A stretch of DNA of 64,000 bases, taken from contig JAFZIP010000007.1 of assembly GCA_017554325.1 (NCBI GenBank), forward strand, positions 8,976 to 72,975, read 5' to 3'. A program made the position numbers and the translations under genes. Shown here piece by piece: positions 20,684 to 30,036 of the stretch. This DNA comes from Bacteroidales bacterium (GTDB lineage: Bacteria > Bacteroidota > Bacteroidia > Bacteroidales > WCHB1-69). The notes beneath the pieces are model-generated. The model was not told the DNA's origin and made no database searches. It saw nothing but the letters and a program-made list of their open reading frames with translations. The stretch's first letter is position 1. Each line of letters starts with the position of its first letter.

Positions 20684-23600
20684 TTACTCGTTTTTTATTT
20701 TCTCTTTCACGCAACGGACGCTGAAAGCGTGGTTCGGTGAGCTATCCAAAATCTGCCACATGTAGCAGTTACAGTCAGCCATGAAGGTTCTGGGTTGTGC
20801 GCTACCAGTAAGGTCGGCACTCCAGAAGTAGGCGTTACCGAGGATGTTCTCGAAACGTGCTCTATCGCTGTTGTAAGCGCCGCCCGGCAGGATGGAGAAG
20901 TTGGTGCTGTTGTTACCACCGCCATCCAACCAGTATTCGCGAGCACGGAGTTCGTTCATGTCAATACCTTCCATGGTGAGGTAGTGTTCAGGAGCAGGCA
21001 TGAACCAACCCTCAGGGCAGATACCTTCCACGTGGCCGAACTCGTTGACGGTCGGCATGGTGTTGGAACCTTCAGCTATGCCCATGCAGGAGTACCAGGA
21101 GTAGAGACGACCGAAAGTGTTGGCTGTGTTTTCAGTGTTCGGGAACTCGTTGCTTACATAGACCATTGCCTTGGCTACCGGTGTGCCGTCTGCATAGTTC
21201 TGAGTCTTCAGATTCTCACGCATCCAGCAGTTCCAGCCCATTCTCACAGTGTGGTATTCATTGCCGTCAACGTCGGTGACGTAGAAATGATCCTCGTCGC
21301 CGCAAGGAGGAAGTTCGAAGGTGAGAACCTGCTCTTTGCTGTGGGTGTTGCCGCACATATCCACAACGTCCCATATAATGGTGGCGCTCAAGTCCGTGAT
21401 GCTGTTGACAGGAATCTTGTTGCCTGTAATGCCGCGGATAATGATGGTATCGATATGAACCTCAGGTACAACTTCACCATTGTGCATCAGGTCGGGTTTT
21501 TGCACCGAATCGATAAGTATAAAGTTGTCACCATAGTTGAGCACATAGTGGCTTTCATTGAGACGCAGGGTGTCTGCTTCGAATTTATAGACCACAATGT
21601 CCATGGAATCCACTGTTGTACAACCGTTCTGGTTGACCATGATGTAATGACGTGCGGAATGTTTGGCTTCTTCTGCCACGTAGTTCAGCGTGTCCTCATT
21701 GCCCAGAACGTAATCTTTGGTGTACCACTTGATGCGGTCTTCCTCATTAATCTGGAAGAAGTTGCAACCGGTGGTATCTACCACAAACTGCATATCGGCG
21801 CCCTCGCACACCGTGTCTTTGCCGATGGTCTGCTGGAAGGTCGGTACTCTACGAACCGTGATGGAACCGTCTTTTCTTACGTTGGCCTGAGAACAACGGG
21901 AGTCAGGATTAGCCACAATTCTGTAGCCGGCGAAACCACCTTCAGACATACGTCCAGTGATTTTGATGGTATCTACTTGATTGCCGGTGGTTTTGGTGTC
22001 TGTCAAACCCTCGTGGTCGGTCAGCCAAGTGAAGTTGTAGCTGGTGGCGTTTGCAATGAGCAACTCATTGTTGACCGTATCGTGACCGCAAATACCCATG
22101 TTGAGTTCACCTTGGGTGATGGTGATGGTCGGGTTCTTCACCACTTCCACGTTGAACGGACCCCATACAGAGTCACACATGGTGGTCTGTTCCACTGCCA
22201 CGATCTTATAGATGGAAGATTGAGTCGGGGTTTTGGTAAGGGTGGTGCTACCTTCAAAAGCGGTAGTGTCATTGGCGGTTTCATCCACCACATAGAACTT
22301 GAAGTAGTTGTCATCGCCCTGGCAGGTGAAGGTCACGTCGTTGCCTTCGCATACGTAGGTCTCGTTGCAGTACTGTGCATAGCCATCCAATTGTGCACGT
22401 ACTGGACGGTCACCCAAAATCATCACGTTATCTACGGTGATGTAGCTGGGCAGATATTTGGAACCTGAGAATGTACCACAAGATTGTGTGCTACCTGGAT
22501 TACCGCCAATGAATTCAACTTTCAAATAGACCACCTCATGATCGAGTGTGTTGGCTGTGGAGAAATTCAAAGTTTGAGAGGCCCAATTGGTTGAAGTGAT
22601 GTTGGCAGTACCAATAGTGTTGTAATTGTCTGTTTCGTTGAATTTGTACGAATATCTCACTTGGTTGAAAGCCTGAGCATTGTTGGTGGAAGCATTCTCA
22701 CGCTTATAATCAAACATTAATCTCAGATTTTCGTAATCGTACGGATTCAATTTAATCTCGAAGTAAGCACCACTAAAATCATCATAAGAAGCTGAAATAC
22801 GATAACCACTGCATCCACTTGCCAAGTTAGGCCAGCGTAAAGCTCCGTTGTTCGAAGATCCGGAATAGCAATAGTCGCTTGATGGTGCTTTACCTGTAAC
22901 AGTTGCAAATGGAGGTACATTAGAGGCTCCCTCCACCATGAATGAACTTCCCTCCGTCTTTGCACCGCAGGCAGGAACATAATTTGTGATACCATTATCC
23001 ATGGGCCATGCAGCCAGTATGACATCATCTTCATCAACAAGCGTCTGGCGGACACTGCTCGTGATTAACGTAAGACGGTAAATACTGTCGCAGCCCGTAG
23101 AACATTTCCACGTTGGGTCTGAGGTGTAATAGGTAATACCCTCTTCCGTGGGGGTGATGTCAAAACCGTACATGTTGTATGTCTCACCCAAACAGATATG
23201 GGCCACCACAGTGGTATCAAATGCCTTGAGTACATCCAAAATTAAGGTAATAACACTGTCGCATTGATTCTCGGTGGTGGGAATACTCAATTGACAAGTA
23301 TGAGTGCCGGGGGTACGCATCTCTTCAGCAGTAGGCGTAACAATGAACATACCGTCCACATATTGGCAGTCATCGGTAAATGTGATGTTGGAAACATGAT
23401 CTATCTCGTTGGAACAAACATAACCGTGACGGACAAGGTCCAAACGATAAGCTGGTACAATACCATGAACATTTAACGTTGCAGACTGTCCGCAAGGATC
23501 GCTACCTACGCTAACTTTATATTGATAATCACCCGCTTGAACCTCGTTATCTACTAAGACATTGGATGTTTCATCCAAAACTGTACTTGTACCACCTACA

Positions 23601-26600
23601 ATTCTCTCCCATTTGTACACGATGGGTGTAGTGACATGAGGATTGACATTGGTGTTGGTGTAAGGAGGAGTGGCAACTAATGTGAGAGACTGGTTTGTAC
23701 AAGCTTCTGTTTCACCATCTAATTCCAATTCGTTAAGCTGAGTTCCTGAGATGCAGAGGTTGTCAATCAAGAAATAATTGGTATAAGCTGATAGTCCAAC
23801 GGCTTCGGATTTTTTTGCACCGCTAAAAACGAATTTCAAAAACACATTGTCGGCATTTTCTATTGCAAAGGAAGATTGCGCTGAAAGATTCACCTCATAA
23901 CTACCGTAAGTTCTTTCTTGTTCTAACAATTCAATGGATAAAATAGGCAAGTCTGTGTAGTGAGTTCCATCTACGCTGTAAGAAATCTGGACAGTGGTGA
24001 ATCCATGGTCGTTACTGCTCCATGTATCCACAAGCCCAACTTGAAAATGTGTTCTATCTACTCCATAATCAAATTTCAATTTCACATTGCCATATCCGGA
24101 AGTGCTGGTTTTTACTAAAATATTCTTTCCGTTATTCATGTTCAATGTGCCACCTAAAAGACTAGTAGTATATGTTCCGTTGATCAAGCCAAGTGAACTA
24201 CCGCTTCCAGATATCAAACTTGAACTGCTGCTTAAGTTGTCATCAGCTCTATTGGAGCCATTCCATCCGCTATAGGTAATCTGTGAGCCAGAGACAGAAC
24301 CGGCAACATCAGCACTAATCGGAGAAGAAACGCTGCTGAAAGTGGTCCAGCCGGCAATCAGCGATTCGTTCTCTTCAAAACCGAACTGGTTCCACTCGTG
24401 TACGTACAGATTCAAGGTTACCACACTGTCGCAACCGGTCACAGTCTGCAGGGTTCGGGTGTAACTGCCGCTCTCGCTGAAGCTGTAGCTATTTCCCATC
24501 TGGTCGCTAATGGTGTAACTGCCGCCGCAAATGGTTTGGTTATCAGTCACGGCATATTTAGGATTCACTTGGATGCTGCCGTCAAAGAAATTGGGGGCGG
24601 CGCAAACTGTGGTGTCATTTGGAAGCAATGCTACATGGTAGGTAAAGGTTCCGGTCTCAGTGGGGTTGCCGGCAATAGTTGTGAAACCGTTTGCGTTCGT
24701 CACCGTCACACCAGCAGGCTGGTGTGGATCAAACGTCACCTGAGGAGTACAGTCGCCGGAATGTTTGAATGAAACAGCAACCATGGCGCTGTTCTGGCAA
24801 ACATCCTGATTCAGATCCAAAACGTCATTCTCAAGGCTGAGGTGGGCGGTGTAGGTGATAGTGAGCATAACAGGTACGCGGGCACCCAAACAGCCGTTGT
24901 CCGGGTTGAATTGGGCCACGTAGTAGGTGAAGACATCCTCATCGGCGAGTGATGCGGTTGGAGCTTCAATGGTATCCGTAGAAGTGGCATCTGCATACCA
25001 ATATAACTCGTAACTCGGATCGGTGGTGGTCACCATGGTGGTAAAAGCCGTGTCAACGCTGTTAGGCGCAGGACATATAGGCGCATAATCGCTTACAATA
25101 GGAATAGGCAATTCAATGATGCTCAACGTAGTAGGGCCGCTGGTGGCTTCGCAACCTTGTGCATTGCTGATTTTGGTTCTGTATTGCACATCGCCAGTTA
25201 CCACGAAGTTACCGGCCGTTATCTCGTTGCCTGTGGTATTGCTGCTGTAGGTGGCTTGAGAAGCGGCTGTATCTACCCAATCAGTAGTAGCATCTCCACC
25301 AGCAGGCAGGAATTCCCAAGTGTAAGTGTAGCTGCCCACTCCACCTTGAATGGTACCAGCCTCCATCGTGACTTCACTGTTGGGGCAGATAGGTCCATTA
25401 GCGCCAATGTTGGGAGCTCCGATAGTGGGAGCGTCCACCACGGTGATGTCAGTGGTGTCTGTGGAGATTACACACTCCGGCAAACCAAAGTAGGTCAAAT
25501 TCAGATAGAAATTGTAGTTGCCGTCATAGTAGATGTTCAGACGCATCGTATCTCCATGCATGTCCGGAACTTGACTGAAATTGATGCCATCATCAGACGT
25601 CAGCCATTTAAATGTAGGATAGATATAATCTTGGTCAATATTATCAAGTTCAAAATTGTCGCTTCCGATCACTAATTTTCCGCCTTCGCATAATTGGGTG
25701 TAGTTGGCGGAAATGGTAGGATTATAATTGCTTAAATCAACCACGACAACGGTATCCTCGCCAGCAGAAACTACCGGTACGGCGCAGTCGGCTATCGTGA
25801 CATAGCGTTTGAAAACGTAAGTGCCGGCGGCCAGGTTTTGTGCGGTGTAGGATGCGGAATTGCTGTTGTCAATAGTGGTTTCTTCGCCTCCGTCCTTGCT
25901 GAATTTCCAAATGTAGGTTACAGTACTGGCACTGTATTCCGGTTCTGCTTCCGTTGCATTTTCAATCGTAATGGAGGCTGTTGTACAGGCGTATTGGCTG
26001 CCAGAGGTAATGGCGCCGGGAGTGTTCAAACCCCTTACCTTAACTGAATAAGTTCCTCCGGAGATCACAGTCTGGCTATTGGCGGTGATGTAACGGTGGA
26101 ACTGGTAGGTGCCCATTTGGTTGAGCGTCATGTCTCCTTGGTTCAATGTGGCCGAGGTGGCATTAGGGACAGCTTGCCAATTGCCATTGTTGAAGGCGTA
26201 TTCCCAAGAATAGACGACATCTCCCACAGCTGCGGTTTCTTCCGTGACACTATAATCGCCGCAGGGGTCTATAGTTTCTGTAATGGTTGTAATGGCACCA
26301 GCGTAAGCCCAGTGTGCGTAGAGGGTAACATTGCTGGTGGAGGTGCATGGGTCATCGGCAGTCACTTGCGTGCCGCCTGTGGCCTCTGTAAACCAGCCAA
26401 GGAAAATGTAACCTTCTCCACGACTGGGAGTTGTCAGATCGTTTCCGTATGTGTTGTAATAAAGCACATCAAAAGTTTCAGCAGCAGGAGCACCTATGTA
26501 GTTCAAATCCAAAGATACGGTAAGGGTGAGAATTTCGTATGTGATGGTGATTTTGCCGTTGCCACCACTACTTCCATCGGTAGTCCCAATGTTCCAGCAG

Positions 26601-27199
26601 CTTCTCGCTGCACCATTACCTCCATTACCAGCTCCATTAGCACCTGTGCCACCAGTACCTGCAGTGTAAGAACCTCCAACGCCTAAAGTTGGGTTAGTCA
26701 CCGTACATTTTCCTCCCTGACTTCCAGAGGTGTTAGTTGTCCCTTGAGAAGCAGTTCCGCCCGCACCTCCAGATTTTTCTCCTTTGCCTGTTTGTGATTG
26801 GCCACCTTTTCCACCCCCTGCATTAGCTAATGTGGATCCGTTATAAGTAACCTTACTGTCGCCACCATTAGAGCCAGAACCTCCTCCAGTACCTACTTGA
26901 ATAGTTACAGTGCGGACTGATTCTGTGGCTTTTTCAGTTGTGTTTTTGCAATAAGCACCGCCACCGCCACCAGACCCGGCTCCGTGCCTATTAGCTGATG
27001 CTGTCGCTGCGCCGCCGCCGCCACCAGCACCCCAGGCTTCGACATTTGTTATTTTCCATGTACCATCGGGCAAATTCCAAGTTTGGCTGGAAGTAAACTC
27101 CTGAGTTTTAGTCTCAGTGTTTTGGTTCTGCGCCCGTGCGACACCCGTTAGCAGGCAACACAGAATCGCAGTCAAGGTTAAGGTTAAAAAATGTTTCAT
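20684..27199 (-). CDS. 2171-aa secreted multidomain surface protein: Gly-rich domain, InlB B-repeat, Ig-like repeats, two jelly-roll-like modules, C-terminal Fib_succ_major (FISUMP) domain
   Basis: Signal peptide ending ARA-Q; EAWGAGGGGG...SGGGGGAY; GYIFLGWFTEATGG...TLYAHW; GCDSVVTLNL motifs; DVDGNEYHTVRMGWNCWMRENLK...GRLYSW...GICPEGW...FSVRCVKE. Confidence 0.8.
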   Translation of the reverse strand: MKHFLTLTLTAILCCLLTGVARAQNQNTETKTQEFTSSQTWNLPDGTWKITNVEAWGAGGGGGAATASANRHGAGSGGGGGAYCKNTTEKATESVRTVTIQVGTGGGSGSNGGDSKVTYNGSTLANAGGGKGGQSQTGKGEKSGGAGGTASQGTTNTSGSQGGKCTVTNPTLGVGGSYTAGTGGTGANGAGNGGNGAARSCWNIGTTDGSSGGNGKITITYEILTLTVSLDLNYIGAPAAETFDVLYYNTYGNDLTTPSRGEGYIFLGWFTEATGGTQVTADDPCTSTSNVTLYAHWAYAGAITTITETIDPCGDYSVTEETAAVGDVVYSWEYAFNNGNWQAVPNATSATLNQGDMTLNQMGTYQFHRYITANSQTVISGGTYSVKVRGLNTPGAITSGSQYACTTASITIENATEAEPEYSASTVTYIWKFSKDGGEETTIDNSNSASYTAQNLAAGTYVFKRYVTIADCAVPVVSAGEDTVVVVDLSNYNPTISANYTQLCEGGKLVIGSDNFELDNIDQDYIYPTFKWLTSDDGINFSQVPDMHGDTMRLNIYYDGNYNFYLNLTYFGLPECVISTDTTDITVVDAPTIGAPNIGANGPICPNSEVTMEAGTIQGGVGSYTYTWEFLPAGGDATTDWVDTAASQATYSSNTTGNEITAGNFVVTGDVQYRTKISNAQGCEATSGPTTLSIIELPIPIVSDYAPICPAPNSVDTAFTTMVTTTDPSYELYWYADATSTDTIEAPTASLADEDVFTYYVAQFNPDNGCLGARVPVMLTITYTAHLSLENDVLDLNQDVCQNSAMVAVSFKHSGDCTPQVTFDPHQPAGVTVTNANGFTTIAGNPTETGTFTYHVALLPNDTTVCAAPNFFDGSIQVNPKYAVTDNQTICGGSYTISDQMGNSYSFSESGSYTRTLQTVTGCDSVVTLNLYVHEWNQFGFEENESLIAGWTTFSSVSSPISADVAGSVSGSQITYSGWNGSNRADDNLSSSSSLISGSGSSLGLINGTYTTSLLGGTLNMNNGKNILVKTSTSGYGNVKLKFDYGVDRTHFQVGLVDTWSSNDHGFTTVQISYSVDGTHYTDLPILSIELLEQERTYGSYEVNLSAQSSFAIENADNVFLKFVFSGAKKSEAVGLSAYTNYFLIDNLCISGTQLNELELDGETEACTNQSLTLVATPPYTNTNVNPHVTTPIVYKWERIVGGTSTVLDETSNVLVDNEVQAGDYQYKVSVGSDPCGQSATLNVHGIVPAYRLDLVRHGYVCSNEIDHVSNITFTDDCQYVDGMFIVTPTAEEMRTPGTHTCQLSIPTTENQCDSVITLILDVLKAFDTTVVAHICLGETYNMYGFDITPTEEGITYYTSDPTWKCSTGCDSIYRLTLITSSVRQTLVDEDDVILAAWPMDNGITNYVPACGAKTEGSSFMVEGASNVPPFATVTGKAPSSDYCYSGSSNNGALRWPNLASGCSGYRISASYDDFSGAYFEIKLNPYDYENLRLMFDYKRENASTNNAQAFNQVRYSYKFNETDNYNTIGTANITSTNWASQTLNFSTANTLDHEVVYLKVEFIGGNPGSTQSCGTFSGSKYLPSYITVDNVMILGDRPVRAQLDGYAQYCNETYVCEGNDVTFTCQGDDNYFKFYVVDETANDTTAFEGSTTLTKTPTQSSIYKIVAVEQTTMCDSVWGPFNVEVVKNPTITITQGELNMGICGHDTVNNELLIANATSYNFTWLTDHEGLTDTKTTGNQVDTIKITGRMSEGGFAGYRIVANPDSRCSQANVRKDGSITVRRVPTFQQTIGKDTVCEGADMQFVVDTTGCNFFQINEEDRIKWYTKDYVLGNEDTLNYVAEEAKHSARHYIMVNQNGCTTVDSMDIVVYKFEADTLRLNESHYVLNYGDNFILIDSVQKPDLMHNGEVVPEVHIDTIIIRGITGNKIPVNSITDLSATIIWDVVDMCGNTHSKEQVLTFELPPCGDEDHFYVTDVDGNEYHTVRMGWNCWMRENLKTQNYADGTPVAKAMVYVSNEFPNTENTANTFGRLYSWYSCMGIAEGSNTMPTVNEFGHVEGICPEGWFMPAPEHYLTMEGIDMNELRAREYWLDGGGNNSTNFSILPGGAYNSDRARFENILGNAYFWSADLTGSAQPRTFMADCNCYMWQILDSSPNHAFSVRCVKEKIKNE

Positions 27200-27464
27200 A
27201 GAAGTTTTAGTTTATTTATTATTTTTTTGAATTTTTATCGTATGTTTTTTTACAAATCTAACAATTAACCTGCAAAAATAGCATTTTTTTACATGAAAAA
27301 CACATCTTTGTAAAATTTTTTATTTTATTATTTAATTTTCAATGAATTATAATTAATGAAGAAAGTGGATGTGAGAATTCGTATGATTGCACTTCGGAGT
27401 GCTCTGTGTGCGGAAGAATATGCCGCATGAGTGGGGAAATGTTAACCCACCAGTTGGGGACATA

Positions 27465-27550
27465 AAAAAAAGCACTCGTAAATTTCTTCGCAAGTGCTTC
27501 ATGTTTTGCGCTCCCTCAAGGAATTGAACCTTGGACCCTCTGATTAACAG
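27465..27550 (-). repeat. att-like direct repeat: 3' half of tRNA-Asn (from the anticodon loop) plus terminator
   Basis: 84/86 identical to 28901-28986. Confidence 0.93.
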
Positions 27551-27563
27551 GCTATCGTTAAAA

Positions 27564-28049
27564 TTACAAATTCAACATCCCGAATTTTTGGGTGTAGGGA
27601 ATGTGAATATCGGTGAAGTCAAACGAGACTTTTCCGTTGTCTTTCAGAATGTCATACATTCGTCGGCTTGCCGTGTCAGAGGTCAAGTAGTATGAAGCGG
27701 ATTCGCATTGCGCCTGTATGAGGAGTTTGACATCGTTTTGAATAATAATACGGGCATCCACCTCTAACACGCCCTTTGATTTTGCTTCATACAGTATCTT
27801 CGCACTTTCACCCGATTTGCTGGCATGATATGCGTTGAATGGAGAGAGGAGAATGTTTCGGAGCGGGAGGTTTTGTATGCTATCTTTCACGCAAAATTCA
27901 GCAACGGCTATGGTACTCATCCGCATAATGTAATCGCGTTCAAGAAAATATTGGAAATAACCAAGTGCATTGTTATGCAGGTCGTTGGTTTCGTCAAGCA
28001 GGCGAATCACAAACCCCGTGTCACAAAAAACTATTTTGTCATCCTTCAT
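27564..28049 (-). CDS. PIN-domain (VapC-like) nuclease
   Basis: Acidic quartet: VFCDTG, STIAVAEF, QNDVKL, LTSD; overlaps the upstream gene by 11 bp. Confidence 0.8.
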   Translation of the reverse strand: MKDDKIVFCDTGFVIRLLDETNDLHNNALGYFQYFLERDYIMRMSTIAVAEFCVKDSIQNLPLRNILLSPFNAYHASKSGESAKILYEAKSKGVLEVDARIIIQNDVKLLIQAQCESASYYLTSDTASRRMYDILKDNGKVSFDFTDIHIPYTQKFGMLNL

Positions 28050-28821
28050 AATTCCCTCCTCTTATTTCATGCAAGTATTCGTCCACATCCACACCCGACC
28101 ATATCGGCGTGGAAGCCTCAATCTTTTGTTTCAAATAGTCCATATCAAATTTTGGCTCAAACTCAATCAGTTCCTTCAACTTGAGCGAGGAACTGTCAAT
28201 TGCACCAGTGACAATGTTCTGCTTTGCAACCGCAACAACTCCATATCTCCTGTACAACGGGTTGCCTGGATAGTTTGCAAGATACTCTTTGTCGGCATCT
28301 ATTTTCACCGCACCGTCCTTGGTGTCCAAATGTATGTTGGACTTGTTTTTGCCTCCCGCATCGATAAGTGTGCCGTAATAATAGACCTCGGCATCCACCC
28401 ACAGACTCTCGGTGCGTCGAAGTTCTGTATCCGGGGCGATTCTTACCACTGATTGTTTATTTTCAGAGGAATGTATGTCTAAAGAAAGATTGTTTTGGAC
28501 GGCAAACCGCTGAAAATTCTCGAATGCAACCGCCGTTTTGGGTTCAAGGGCATCCAATGGGTTGGTTGTTGACAGCATCAATGTGAGAATGGAGGCGAAC
28601 TCAACTGCCTTTTGCTTACTGACGGTGAAAATATTCTTCACAGAGCCGTTCTCAACGTGAAAGGTGGCGACAGGACGGTCTTTTTTCTTGTCAAGGTCAA
28701 GCATGGCGGAAGCATACTCCAACACATCACGCATAAGAGTTATATCGTAATTGTCGGGAGTGAGCGGCTCTGCACCATACTTGCCGTCTATGTGTATAAT
28801 GACCTGCCCTTGGTTTTCCAT
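28039..28821 (-). CDS. Uncharacterised 260-aa protein coupled to the PIN gene (putative antitoxin/sensor)
   Basis: Start set at MENQGQ (28821), 20 nt below a TATTTTTG -7 element; stop overlaps the PIN start; C-terminus WSGVDVDEYLHEIRGG. Confidence 0.75.
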   Translation of the reverse strand: MENQGQVIIHIDGKYGAEPLTPDNYDITLMRDVLEYASAMLDLDKKKDRPVATFHVENGSVKNIFTVSKQKAVEFASILTLMLSTTNPLDALEPKTAVAFENFQRFAVQNNLSLDIHSSENKQSVVRIAPDTELRRTESLWVDAEVYYYGTLIDAGGKNKSNIHLDTKDGAVKIDADKEYLANYPGNPLYRRYGVVAVAKQNIVTGAIDSSSLKLKELIEFEPKFDMDYLKQKIEASTPIWSGVDVDEYLHEIRGGNYEG

Positions 28822-28842
28822 TCCTTTTGTTTTTTCAGAATG

Positions 28843-28850
28843 CAAAAATA
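28843..28850 (-). promoter_or_regulatory. -7 promoter element (TATTTTTG) inside the islet
   Basis: caaaaata on the plus strand, 22-29 nt upstream of ATG 28821. Confidence 0.55.
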
Positions 28851-28900
28851 CAACTTTTCTTGATATCCTCACTACACCTCTCCTCCTCAATGAGCCAAAC

Positions 28901-28935
28901 AAAAAAAGCACTCGCAAATTTCTTCGCAAGTGCTT
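28901..28935 (-). terminator. tRNA-Asn terminator (second copy at 27465-27499)
   Basis: AAGCACTTGCG...GCGAGTGCTTTTTTT on the minus strand. Confidence 0.7.
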
Positions 28936-28944
28936 CATGTTTTG

Positions 28945-29018
28945 CGCTCCCTCAAGGACTTGAACCTTGGACCCTCTGATTAACAGTCAGATGCTCTAAC
29001 CAACTGAGCTAAGGAAGC
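28945..29018 (-). tRNA. tRNA-Asn (GTT)
   Basis: GCTTCCTTAGCTCAGTTGGTTAGAGCATCTGACTGTTAATCAGAGGGTCCAAGGTTCAAGTCCTTGAGGGAGCG; cloverleaf folds; CCA not encoded. Confidence 0.97.
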
Positions 29019-29172
29019 GGATGTTTAACCGCTTTGGTTAACGGCTGCAAAAATACATTTTTTTTAATATGATTCAATACTTTTGAAAAAAAAATTATTT
29101 TTGCAAAAAATTATCTCCGTAACTATTGCCTAATCGTTTTAAAGTCAATTATATAATAATCATCATCCCATT

Positions 29173-30036
29173 ATGATAACCCGCAAGCAGGTTTTCACCG
29201 AGATCAAAAACTACTTTTTCATCACCATCGGTTTGGCCATTTTTGTGCTCGGATGGTCCGCATTCATGACTCCTTTCAAAGTTACGGGCGGCGGCGTGGC
29301 CGGCATCGCCTCCATCCTCTACTTCGCCACAGGCATCCCCATCGGCTTCACCACCTTTGCCCTGAACGCCATCCTTATCGCCATCGCCTGGAGGGTCCTC
29401 GGACCGAAGTTCTGCATCAATTCGCTGATTTGCACCGTAATCATATCTGTTTTCTTCTATATCGGCCAGCAAATCTTTACAAAACCTCTCGTGGATGACA
29501 TGTTCATGAGTGTCATCATAGGTGCCTCTCTGGGCGCACTCGGCGCAGGTATCTCCATCAACTGGGGCGGCAATACCGGTGGCCTCGACATCGTCGCACT
29601 CATGGTGGGCAAGTACCGCAACATCTCCTACGGCAAGGTAAACATGATGGCCAACCTCCTCATCGTCGGCTCCTCGTTCTTCATCCTCATGGATGTGCAG
29701 AAACTCGTCTATAGCTTCGTGGTGCTCTTTGTAGGTATGTTGGTGGCCGACACGGTGATCGACGGTTTCCACCAGACCTACCAGTTTATGGTTTTTTCCA
29801 AGAAGAATGACGAGATATCCCATCGCATTAACCAGGAACTGCACCGCGGAGCCACATTCCTGAAAGGTTATGGCTCCTACAACCGCCAGGAGAACGACGT
29901 CCTCCTGATTATCGCCCATCGCTCTGACAAGGTTCGGGTCACCCGCATCATCAAAGAGATCGACAGCACCGCATTCGTCACCATTACCAAAACCTCCAGC
30001 GTCTTCGGCAAAAACTTCGACACGTTGAAATTATAA
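29173..30036 (+). CDS. YitT family membrane protein (second paralogue)
   Basis: TGGGVAGIAS, GGNTGGLDIVA, RGATFLKGYG, IDSTAFV. Confidence 0.88.
   Translation: MITRKQVFTEIKNYFFITIGLAIFVLGWSAFMTPFKVTGGGVAGIASILYFATGIPIGFTTFALNAILIAIAWRVLGPKFCINSLICTVIISVFFYIGQQIFTKPLVDDMFMSVIIGASLGALGAGISINWGGNTGGLDIVALMVGKYRNISYGKVNMMANLLIVGSSFFILMDVQKLVYSFVVLFVGMLVADTVIDGFHQTYQFMVFSKKNDEISHRINQELHRGATFLKGYGSYNRQENDVLLIIAHRSDKVRVTRIIKEIDSTAFVTITKTSSVFGKNFDTLKL

Follow-up and report, generated by a model that had tools for sequence, protein, structure and literature searches.

How did two small genes that encode no recombinase come to lie between an intact tRNA-Asn gene and a displaced copy of the 3' half of that same gene? 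The question is raised by positions 27,465 to 29,018 of the DNA studied here, a window of 64,000 nucleotides (nt) from a Bacteroidales bacterium of the WCHB1-69 lineage (GenBank assembly GCA_017554325.1, contig JAFZIP010000007.1, positions 8,976 to 72,975 of the forward strand). An earlier account made from the DNA letters alone, here called the sequence-only reading, had offered two answers for this islet: a minimal cassette mobilised in trans, or a reduced island. We favour the second, and with a probability of roughly 55% we regard the islet as the decayed remnant of an integrative island, comparable to a cis-mobilizable element (CIME), from which a toxin-antitoxin pair has survived.

Direct repeats at the tRNA-Asn gene

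The genome that contains the window (G000; 98% complete, 21 contigs) carries an 86-nt direct repeat whose two copies start 1,436 nt apart and share 98% identity, differing at 2 positions (27479/28915 and 27523/28959). The block is present in these two copies only in the whole genome, and a repeat of this length with 2 mismatches would be far beyond chance. Each copy consists of tRNA nt 33-75 (43 nt) followed by a 43-nt trailer bearing a terminator hairpin. In the orientation of the tRNA, the 5' edge of the repeat, read from the sequence, is CTGTTAATC and coincides with tRNA nt 33, where the anticodon loop begins. ARAGORN found tRNA-Asn(GTT) as the sole tRNA gene of the window and, when run on the whole genome, as the 1 Asn tRNA gene among 44 tRNAs. 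The copy that forms part of this intact gene is called proximal and the displaced one distal. A hairpin scan located a terminator-like hairpin followed by a T run at 28936-28905 of the minus strand in the proximal copy; in the distal copy a G-to-A change affects the closing pair of the terminator stem, and the scan reported no hairpin there.

The repeats enclose 1,350 nt, made up of two minus-strand open reading frames (ORFs), ORF-A and ORF-B, that overlap by 11 nt. No recombinase domain was detected in either of them with Pfam, NCBIfam, PADLOC or PHROGs. The description given by the sequence-only reading is therefore borne out in its essentials: repeats of 86 bp with 2 mismatches by the repeat search, their composition of a tRNA 3' half starting in the anticodon loop plus the downstream terminator by ARAGORN, the sequence and the proximal hairpin, and between them two overlapping ORFs without a recombinase.

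An unoccupied site in a sister species

In G011, a sister species of the same genus, window positions 26934-27550 and 28901-30030 map to one continuous segment in which they share a single copy of the block. Collinearity extends to both sides, with 87-91% identity on the side of YitT and IspE and 73-79% on the side of a 2,171-residue surface protein; among 40 relatives, G011 is the only one in which both flanks could be aligned side by side. Since G011 has the same flanks, one block copy and no cargo, the islet is, on this alignment, a real insertion relative to an unoccupied site. Empty sites in relatives had been suggested by the sequence-only reading as a way of checking its proposal, and G011 provides one, with syntenic flanks and a single block. 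The comparison also polarises the two mismatches. At the T-loop position the proximal copy has the state of all relatives, and at the terminator-stem position that of G011; the distal copy is the derived one in both cases.

In a metagenome-assembled genome, a misjoin caused by the repeat could give the same picture. G000 is an assembly of 21 contigs, the assembly of the related genome G049 folds back at this very repeat, and contigs of two others (G003 and G009) begin there. Nevertheless, we consider an assembly artefact very improbable, given the 2 differences between the copies, the unique coding DNA between them on a single contig and the synteny of both flanks. Twenty sequencing runs, all stored as assembled contigs, contain the stretch; runs from other studies share 0.89 and 0.78 of the words sampled from a 1.9-kb stretch over both junctions, a weak point in the same direction.

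tRNA-Asn as an integration site in the genus

The tRNA and its trailer were compared with all 55 genomes of the genus set (G000 and 54 others). Displaced tRNA-Asn 3' halves occur in at least 6 of the 54 other genomes, namely G010, G003, G046, G043, G009 and G049. In G003 and G009 the contig starts at the displaced half, so the left junction is readable in four of the six; there, identity begins exactly at CTGTTAATC in G010, G043 and G049, and 6 nt earlier in G046. Tyrosine integrases adjoin the junctions of G046 (418 amino acids, aa), G010 (420 aa, 59% identical to the former) and G049 (402 aa), all of them with Phage_integrase and/or SAM-like domains. The anticodon-loop crossover put forward by the sequence-only reading thus recurs, to the base or 6 nt off in G046, at junctions linked to integrases.

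The cargo found at these junctions differs from genome to genome. In G046 the tRNA and the displaced half are about 24 kb apart (L019:2679-15001 and L020:1-12059), and the island between them encodes two D12 methylases, GmrSD, a PLD nuclease, a WYL/WCX protein, Schlafen/AlbA_2, RmuC, an AAA ATPase, an ion-transport protein, a resolvase and the 418-aa integrase, together with several ORFs without a Pfam match; in G043 the junction genes are AAA_21/RloB and AAA_14/DUF4143. Because integrase-bearing junctions with different cargo share their crossover point across genomes of the genus, tRNA-Asn is a recurrent integrase hotspot whose cargo changes and is largely of the defence type, as the suggestion of a swappable defence hotspot had anticipated. 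Successive integrations (accretion) have left signs at this locus.

A terminator hairpin of related type follows the tRNA at every proximal junction examined, and on this ground regeneration of the tRNA together with its terminator is a general feature of the site. The terminator duplication singled out by the sequence-only reading stands in this form, as the company that the terminator keeps with the regenerated tRNA.

G000 itself has no integrase of the tRNA-Asn type. Four loci in this genome match PF00589, two of them short and Xer-like, one at tRNA-Ser and one at tRNA-Leu with a resolvase. The G046 integrase has its sole match in G000 at one of the Xer-like loci, and a weak one (E 8.8e-5), while BLASTP found no match to the island integrases in the tRNA-Leu and tRNA-Ser integrase regions. 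A tRNA-Asn-linked integrase elsewhere in the genome, which the sequence-only reading had proposed to look for, is thus missing: none of the four loci is of the G046/G010 type.

The cargo proteins

Neither ORF-A nor ORF-B has a match in Pfam, NCBIfam, PADLOC or PHROGs, and PDB sequence profiles gave no match for either. ORF-B falls below the threshold of the Pfam PIN model, and PF01850 is carried by 1 of 91 relatives among those listed. The structural model of ORF-B, with a predicted local distance difference test (pLDDT) score of 93.8, retrieved 42 PDB matches at E<=1e-3 in Foldseek, headed by VapC toxins and archaeal PIN proteins, with E-values down to 2.3e-6 against VapC. An alignment of 25 related sequences shows D10, E51 and D125 to be invariant and D106 to be present in at least 90%. 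We consider ORF-B a putative toxin, a nuclease with a predicted PIN/VapC fold.

The ORF-A family comprises 312 clusters of relatives, with 486 relatives among the species-representative genomes of GTDB, and its matches in the protein atlas are unnamed Bacteroidota clusters only. In its AlphaFold model (pLDDT 82.6), residues 142-225 form an oligonucleotide-binding (OB) fold with SSB-, RPA- and Stn1-like matches of middling score (VIA Z 7-8.7), accompanied by two further alpha/beta modules; Foldseek gave no match for ORF-A at E<=1e-3. We regard it as a putative antitoxin or regulator, with a C-terminal tail that is predicted to lie over the PIN active site.

Gene order was surveyed in the 80 best GTDB loci of the 486 ORF-A relatives. 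A PIN partner is encoded directly downstream of the ORF-A relative in 72 of these 80 loci, with a partial one in 4 more, and the pair is conserved across Bacteroidota. Prediction of the complex between the two proteins gave a score of 0.82 against 0.00 for the best control. Of the solved complexes, 116 of 157 attain this mark, as do 2 of 215 mismatched pairs; the prediction drew on alignments of our own, so that the calibration is approximate. Three runs agree in at least 93% of the contacts, with a partner pLDDT of at least 85. The predicted interface places ORF-A residues 220-255 and part of the OB domain against the region of ORF-B around D10, E51, D106 and D125.

Usual VapBC antitoxins are small proteins of the AbrB, ribbon-helix-helix (RHH), PHD or helix-turn-helix (HTH) DNA-binding types. 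The pair resembles these type II toxin-antitoxin systems in its PIN-fold toxin with four acidic residues, in the upstream, overlapping partner gene, in the C-terminal partner segment predicted over the active site and in a frequent location on islands. It differs in that ORF-A has 260 aa and an OB fold, and no N-terminal DNA-binding domain of the AbrB, RHH, PHD or HTH type in Pfam. The models thus predict VapB-VapC logic with an atypical, large partner, from which we infer that ORF-B would be toxic and ORF-A would neutralise it.

Distribution of the cassette

Within the genus set, ORF-A was found in 6 of the 55 genomes: intact in G000, G005 and G002, as a 44%-identical relative in G061, and as deletion remnants in G065 and G003. 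Outside G000, not one of these is located at tRNA-Asn. The cassettes of G005 and G002 are 91% and 90% identical to that of G000 at the DNA level, whereas their YitT regions are 71% and 69% identical to that of G000. As the cassette identity is well above that of the YitT region in both genomes, horizontal transfer of the cassette is indicated. In 26 metagenome loci the homology always covers about 28859 to 27561. No tRNA-Asn-like DNA lies beside the cassette in these 26 loci or beside the copies and remnants of G005, G002, G003 and G065, and no flanking repeat longer than 14 nt was found around 17 cassette copies. From these comparisons, the cassette is horizontally mobile, yet not as an att-flanked unit.

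These copies bear directly on the possibility that the islet is a functional minimal satellite (a mobile CIME) with usable attL and attR, moved by a tRNA-Asn integrase supplied in trans. Both core blocks are intact and their first 27 nt identical, integrases that use the exact crossover point circulate in the genus, the cassette clearly moves horizontally among species, and tandems of a CIME with an integrative and conjugative element (ICE) are reported to transfer (PMC5704250). However, a unit with these junctions is seen in G000 only, with a spacer next to the proximal repeat that is unique among the 55 genomes. The copies elsewhere lack tRNA-Asn sequence, 0 of 17 have a flanking repeat longer than 14 nt, the cognate integrase is absent from G000, and the paired ACTAACA motifs that accompany the G046 and G010 junctions (see below) are missing beside both G000 copies. 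We therefore judge the satellite to be unlikely.

The neighbours of the cassette are often type I/IIG restriction genes, GmrSD, BrxL, AAA_15/21 ATPases, a Cas3-like helicase or HNH nucleases, and sometimes housekeeping genes. The ORF-A-family pair as a whole is likewise often found among restriction, GmrSD and BREX genes. In 4 of the 80 GTDB loci a same-strand tRNA gene (Arg, Ser twice, Leu/Gly) precedes it by 211-369 nt, as in the islet; the available DNA of 5 GTDB loci with a nearby tRNA gene showed no tRNA duplication. One could go further and see in the pair an undescribed defence or addiction module, with an OB-fold sensor-antitoxin restraining the PIN nuclease, that is habitually the first cargo at the attL of Bacteroidota tRNA islands, the islet being a self-stabilising minimal att-flanked element that an incoming element with a tRNA-Asn integrase could still move by accretion. 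We hold this wider proposal to be doubtful, less probable even than the satellite.

Decayed copies show some regularity. A recurring internal deletion joins about window position 28754 to 28434 in G065 and in two metagenome contigs (decayed copies L066, L058 and L062), and G003 (L068/L015) retains only the promoter with the start of ORF-A fused to the end of ORF-B. Both G005 (L017) and G003 (L015) have the cassette, or what remains of it, within a few kb of a dnaK-like gene, in a variable region that may be a second hotspot. Neighbours in G005 include a ResIII helicase and an HNH nuclease; in G003, the dnaK, restriction-subunit (HsdS) and AddAB-like identities are a reading of the translations only.

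Junctions and candidate arm motifs

Downstream of the ORF-B stop, G005, G002 and G003 stay homologous to one another for about 60-100 nt, whereas in G000 this homology stops at 13 nt and joins the block. At the cut point the other copies read TTAAAAGG and G000 reads TTAACAGG, in the anticodon loop, with a 7-of-8 microhomology, TTAA[C/A]AGG. This microhomology could have served as a pseudo-site or as the point of a microhomology deletion.

The motif ACTAACA recurs around the junctions of the genus. It is paired at +95/+107 from the block start in the attL of G046 and at -136/-124 in the attR of both G046 and G010, and it occurs singly at +99 in the attL of G043 and at +94 after the single site of G011. 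Beside the G000 copies it was found at neither; the distal flank (27414..27464) shows a degenerate version of the G046/G043 attL arm. We take these motifs as candidate arm-type integrase sites and infer that the tRNA-Asn trailer in the G011/G000 lineage probably descends from an older element of this integrase family. Such a descent would explain how a related second element came to bring a near-identical half-tRNA with its terminator. When the distal flanks of relatives were mapped onto G000 in search of an older island, the matches scattered over other contigs.

Both copies in G000 share trailer states unlike those of G011, which places the duplication, or the last event that homogenised the copies, after the split from G011. 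A trailer that is specific to the lineage and common to both copies, at about 4 positions unlike G011, is also what a homology-driven insertion independent of an integrase would leave. The event would be either a RecA-mediated (Campbell-type) insertion of a circular or linear DNA in which the cassette adjoined a copy of this lineage's own 86-nt segment, or a local duplication before capture of the cassette, and the anticodon-loop boundary would be the legacy of an older junction. The missing arm motifs beside the proximal copy are in line with this, as is the single G011 site, which with its ACTAACA at +94 resembles an old attL, so that the 86-nt unit pre-existed as a resident. Yet the repeat has its 5' edge at precisely the base where at least 3 other genomes have integrase-linked junctions, a source molecule with both cassette and block was not found in any collection searched, and the prior step that placed 86 nt beside the cassette is left unexplained. 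Overall, a homology-driven origin seems improbable, though the least so of the alternatives to a decayed island. An RNA-mediated origin was also considered, since the repeat, with its span between anticodon loop and terminator, equals the transcript of a tRNA 3' half, and VapC toxins cut tRNA anticodon loops. It was set aside, because integrase-linked junctions at the same base elsewhere explain the boundary more simply.

A proposed history of the islet

In the decayed-island history that we favour, a tyrosine integrase of the tRNA-Asn-specific family common in the genus would have inserted an island by recombination at the anticodon loop. The attachment site of the element would have brought a tRNA 3' half with its terminator, regenerating the sole tRNA-Asn gene and displacing the resident half. 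The island would have arrived with the cassette next to attL, a first-cargo position that is plausible given that the pairs of the four tRNA-proximal GTDB loci sit similarly downstream of a tRNA gene. A later deletion would have removed the integrase and the remaining cargo, running on the distal side from a pseudo-core in the 3' untranslated region of the cassette to the attR core. What survived would be a two-gene module of the VapBC-like toxin-antitoxin or defence kind, with the ORF-A C-terminus masking the nuclease site of ORF-B, kept because its loss was selected against. It would now be transcribed from its own promoter, with transcription ending at the displaced tRNA terminator. This order of events and the deletions themselves are a reconstruction. 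As to the two options left by the sequence-only reading, the reduced island is the one retained, and the cassette mobilised in trans is disfavoured by the copies elsewhere without tRNA-Asn flanks, the truncated 3' region, the absent arm motifs and the lack of a matching integrase in G000.

Several observations weigh against this history. The repeats are near-identical even through a terminator specific to the lineage (the 43-nt trailer departs from that of G011 at about 4 positions), and such likeness needs a very close donor, gene conversion or a homology-driven event. The ACTAACA of the G046 and G043 attL is missing at the G000 proximal junction, which calls for the assumption of either a second deletion or another attachment site. 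The derived mismatches of the distal copy fit the decay of a non-functional copy, without proving which of the two was borne by the element. No tRNA-Asn island with the cassette was found, and the six genomes with displaced halves are without an intact ORF-A; among them, G003 has a cassette remnant only, on another contig. No integrase-bearing intermediate form was found for the G000 lineage. As for the cargo, PADLOC-DB 2.0 contains 0 families matching either protein at E<=0.1.

Relation to known systems

The use of tRNA genes by islands, including the anticodon-loop sublocation, is reportedly treated by Williams in a work of 2002. An anticodon-centred class of tRNA-gene islands with tyrosine integrases appears in the description of the Islander database (PMC4383910). 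The locus resembles such islands in the regenerated tRNA with a displaced 3' fragment, the anticodon-loop crossover, the empty site in a relative and the sibling islands with integrases at the same point. It is unlike them in being only 1.35 kb long and integrase-less, and in a repeat that extends 43 nt past the tRNA through the terminator with near-identical copies.

The CIME concept, as set out for streptococcal systems of ICEs and IMEs (integrative and mobilizable elements) in PMC5704250, covers elements that have kept their att sites and lost their integration genes. The islet is similar in its location at a site used by related integrating elements and its signs of accretion. Its core blocks are intact, but without the ACTAACA pairs beside them; integration and transfer genes are absent, and the truncated 3' region fits a deletion, but no ancestral form was found. 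It differs in phylum and integrase family, and descent from an ICE or IME and mobilisation are for the islet only hypothetical. With its candidate arm motifs apparently lost, the islet may no longer be mobilisable.

Most likely, then, the islet is an ordinary kind of remnant with mildly interesting cargo. It offers a clean, small example of the decay of a tRNA-gene island: the att repeats and a putative toxin-antitoxin pair have persisted longer than the integrase, and comparison is possible with an empty site and with complete sibling islands inserted at the same nucleotide. It also marks tRNA-Asn as a variable defence hotspot in these gut Bacteroidales and brings to light a two-gene family, widespread and without annotation, in which a PIN nuclease is paired with a large OB-fold protein and which is a reasonable toxin-antitoxin or anti-phage candidate.

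Organisation of the islet and further observations

The features of the islet are listed in Table 1. The start of ORF-A was placed at the methionine of MENQ by family alignment, and a longer ORF beginning inside the repeat was set aside. Upstream of it, TATTTTTG fits TAnnTTTG, which we take to be the Bacteroidetes -7 consensus, and the motif is kept in the other cassette copies (alignment of four copies). Of the cassette's own -7 promoter asserted by the sequence-only reading, the motif and its conservation are present and the function is putative. Homology to other cassette copies stops at 28859-28869, and the adjoining spacer of about 31 nt has no counterpart in the genus set: a 34-nt pattern (28867-28900) searched with <=3 mismatches matched G000 alone among the 55 genomes. 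The cassette has a G+C content of 0.43-0.47, compared with 0.50-0.53 in the flanking genes, one of the signs of its foreign origin.

Table 1. Features of the islet and its borders in window coordinates.
Feature	Position	Strand	Basis
tRNA-Asn(GTT), intact	28944..29018	minus	ARAGORN on the window
Proximal repeat, attL-like: tRNA nt 33-75 and 43-nt trailer	28901..28986	minus	Repeat search, alignment
Spacer, unique	28870..28900	minus	Between proximal terminator and start of cassette homology
TATTTTTG, Bacteroidetes-type -7 promoter-like motif 5' of ORF-A	28843..28850	minus	Sequence and four-copy alignment
ORF-A, 260 aa	28039..28821	minus	ORF calling and family alignment
ORF-B, 161 aa	27564..28049	minus	ORF calling
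13-nt gap between ORF-B stop and distal repeat	27551..27563	minus	Alignment of copies
Distal repeat, attR-like: displaced tRNA-Asn 3' half and terminator	27465..27550	minus	Repeat search, alignment
Flank homologous to the DNA after the single G011 tRNA-Asn terminator	27414..27464	minus	Alignment

Directly downstream of the islet lies an ORF of 2,171 aa (window 20684-27199, minus strand) with a glycine-rich N-terminal region. In G049, the end of contig C92 (L021:5939-5981) carries an inverted tRNA-Asn half whose flank is identical to the proximal junction, apparently through a fold-back in the assembly.

Small serine recombinases of 209-220 aa with Resolvase and HTH domains, 57-79% identical to one another, are encoded beside the cassette in G002 (L016:1684-2313) and inside the tRNA-Asn islands of G010 (L023:5968-6630) and G046 (L019:6198-6854). 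In G000, contig C19 (L035:9294-12161) shows the start of a second island, where a 455-aa integrase, a 106-aa ORF and a 213-aa resolvase come in turn after tRNA-Leu(CAG); this resolvase is 58-65% identical to the resolvases of G010, G046 and G002, of which those of G010 and G046 lie in tRNA-Asn islands. On contig C21 of the same genome (L036:1821-3268), the ORF directly after tRNA-Ser(CGA) has 404 aa and lies at the third PF00589 locus; large ORFs come next, and the region may represent a prophage or an island.

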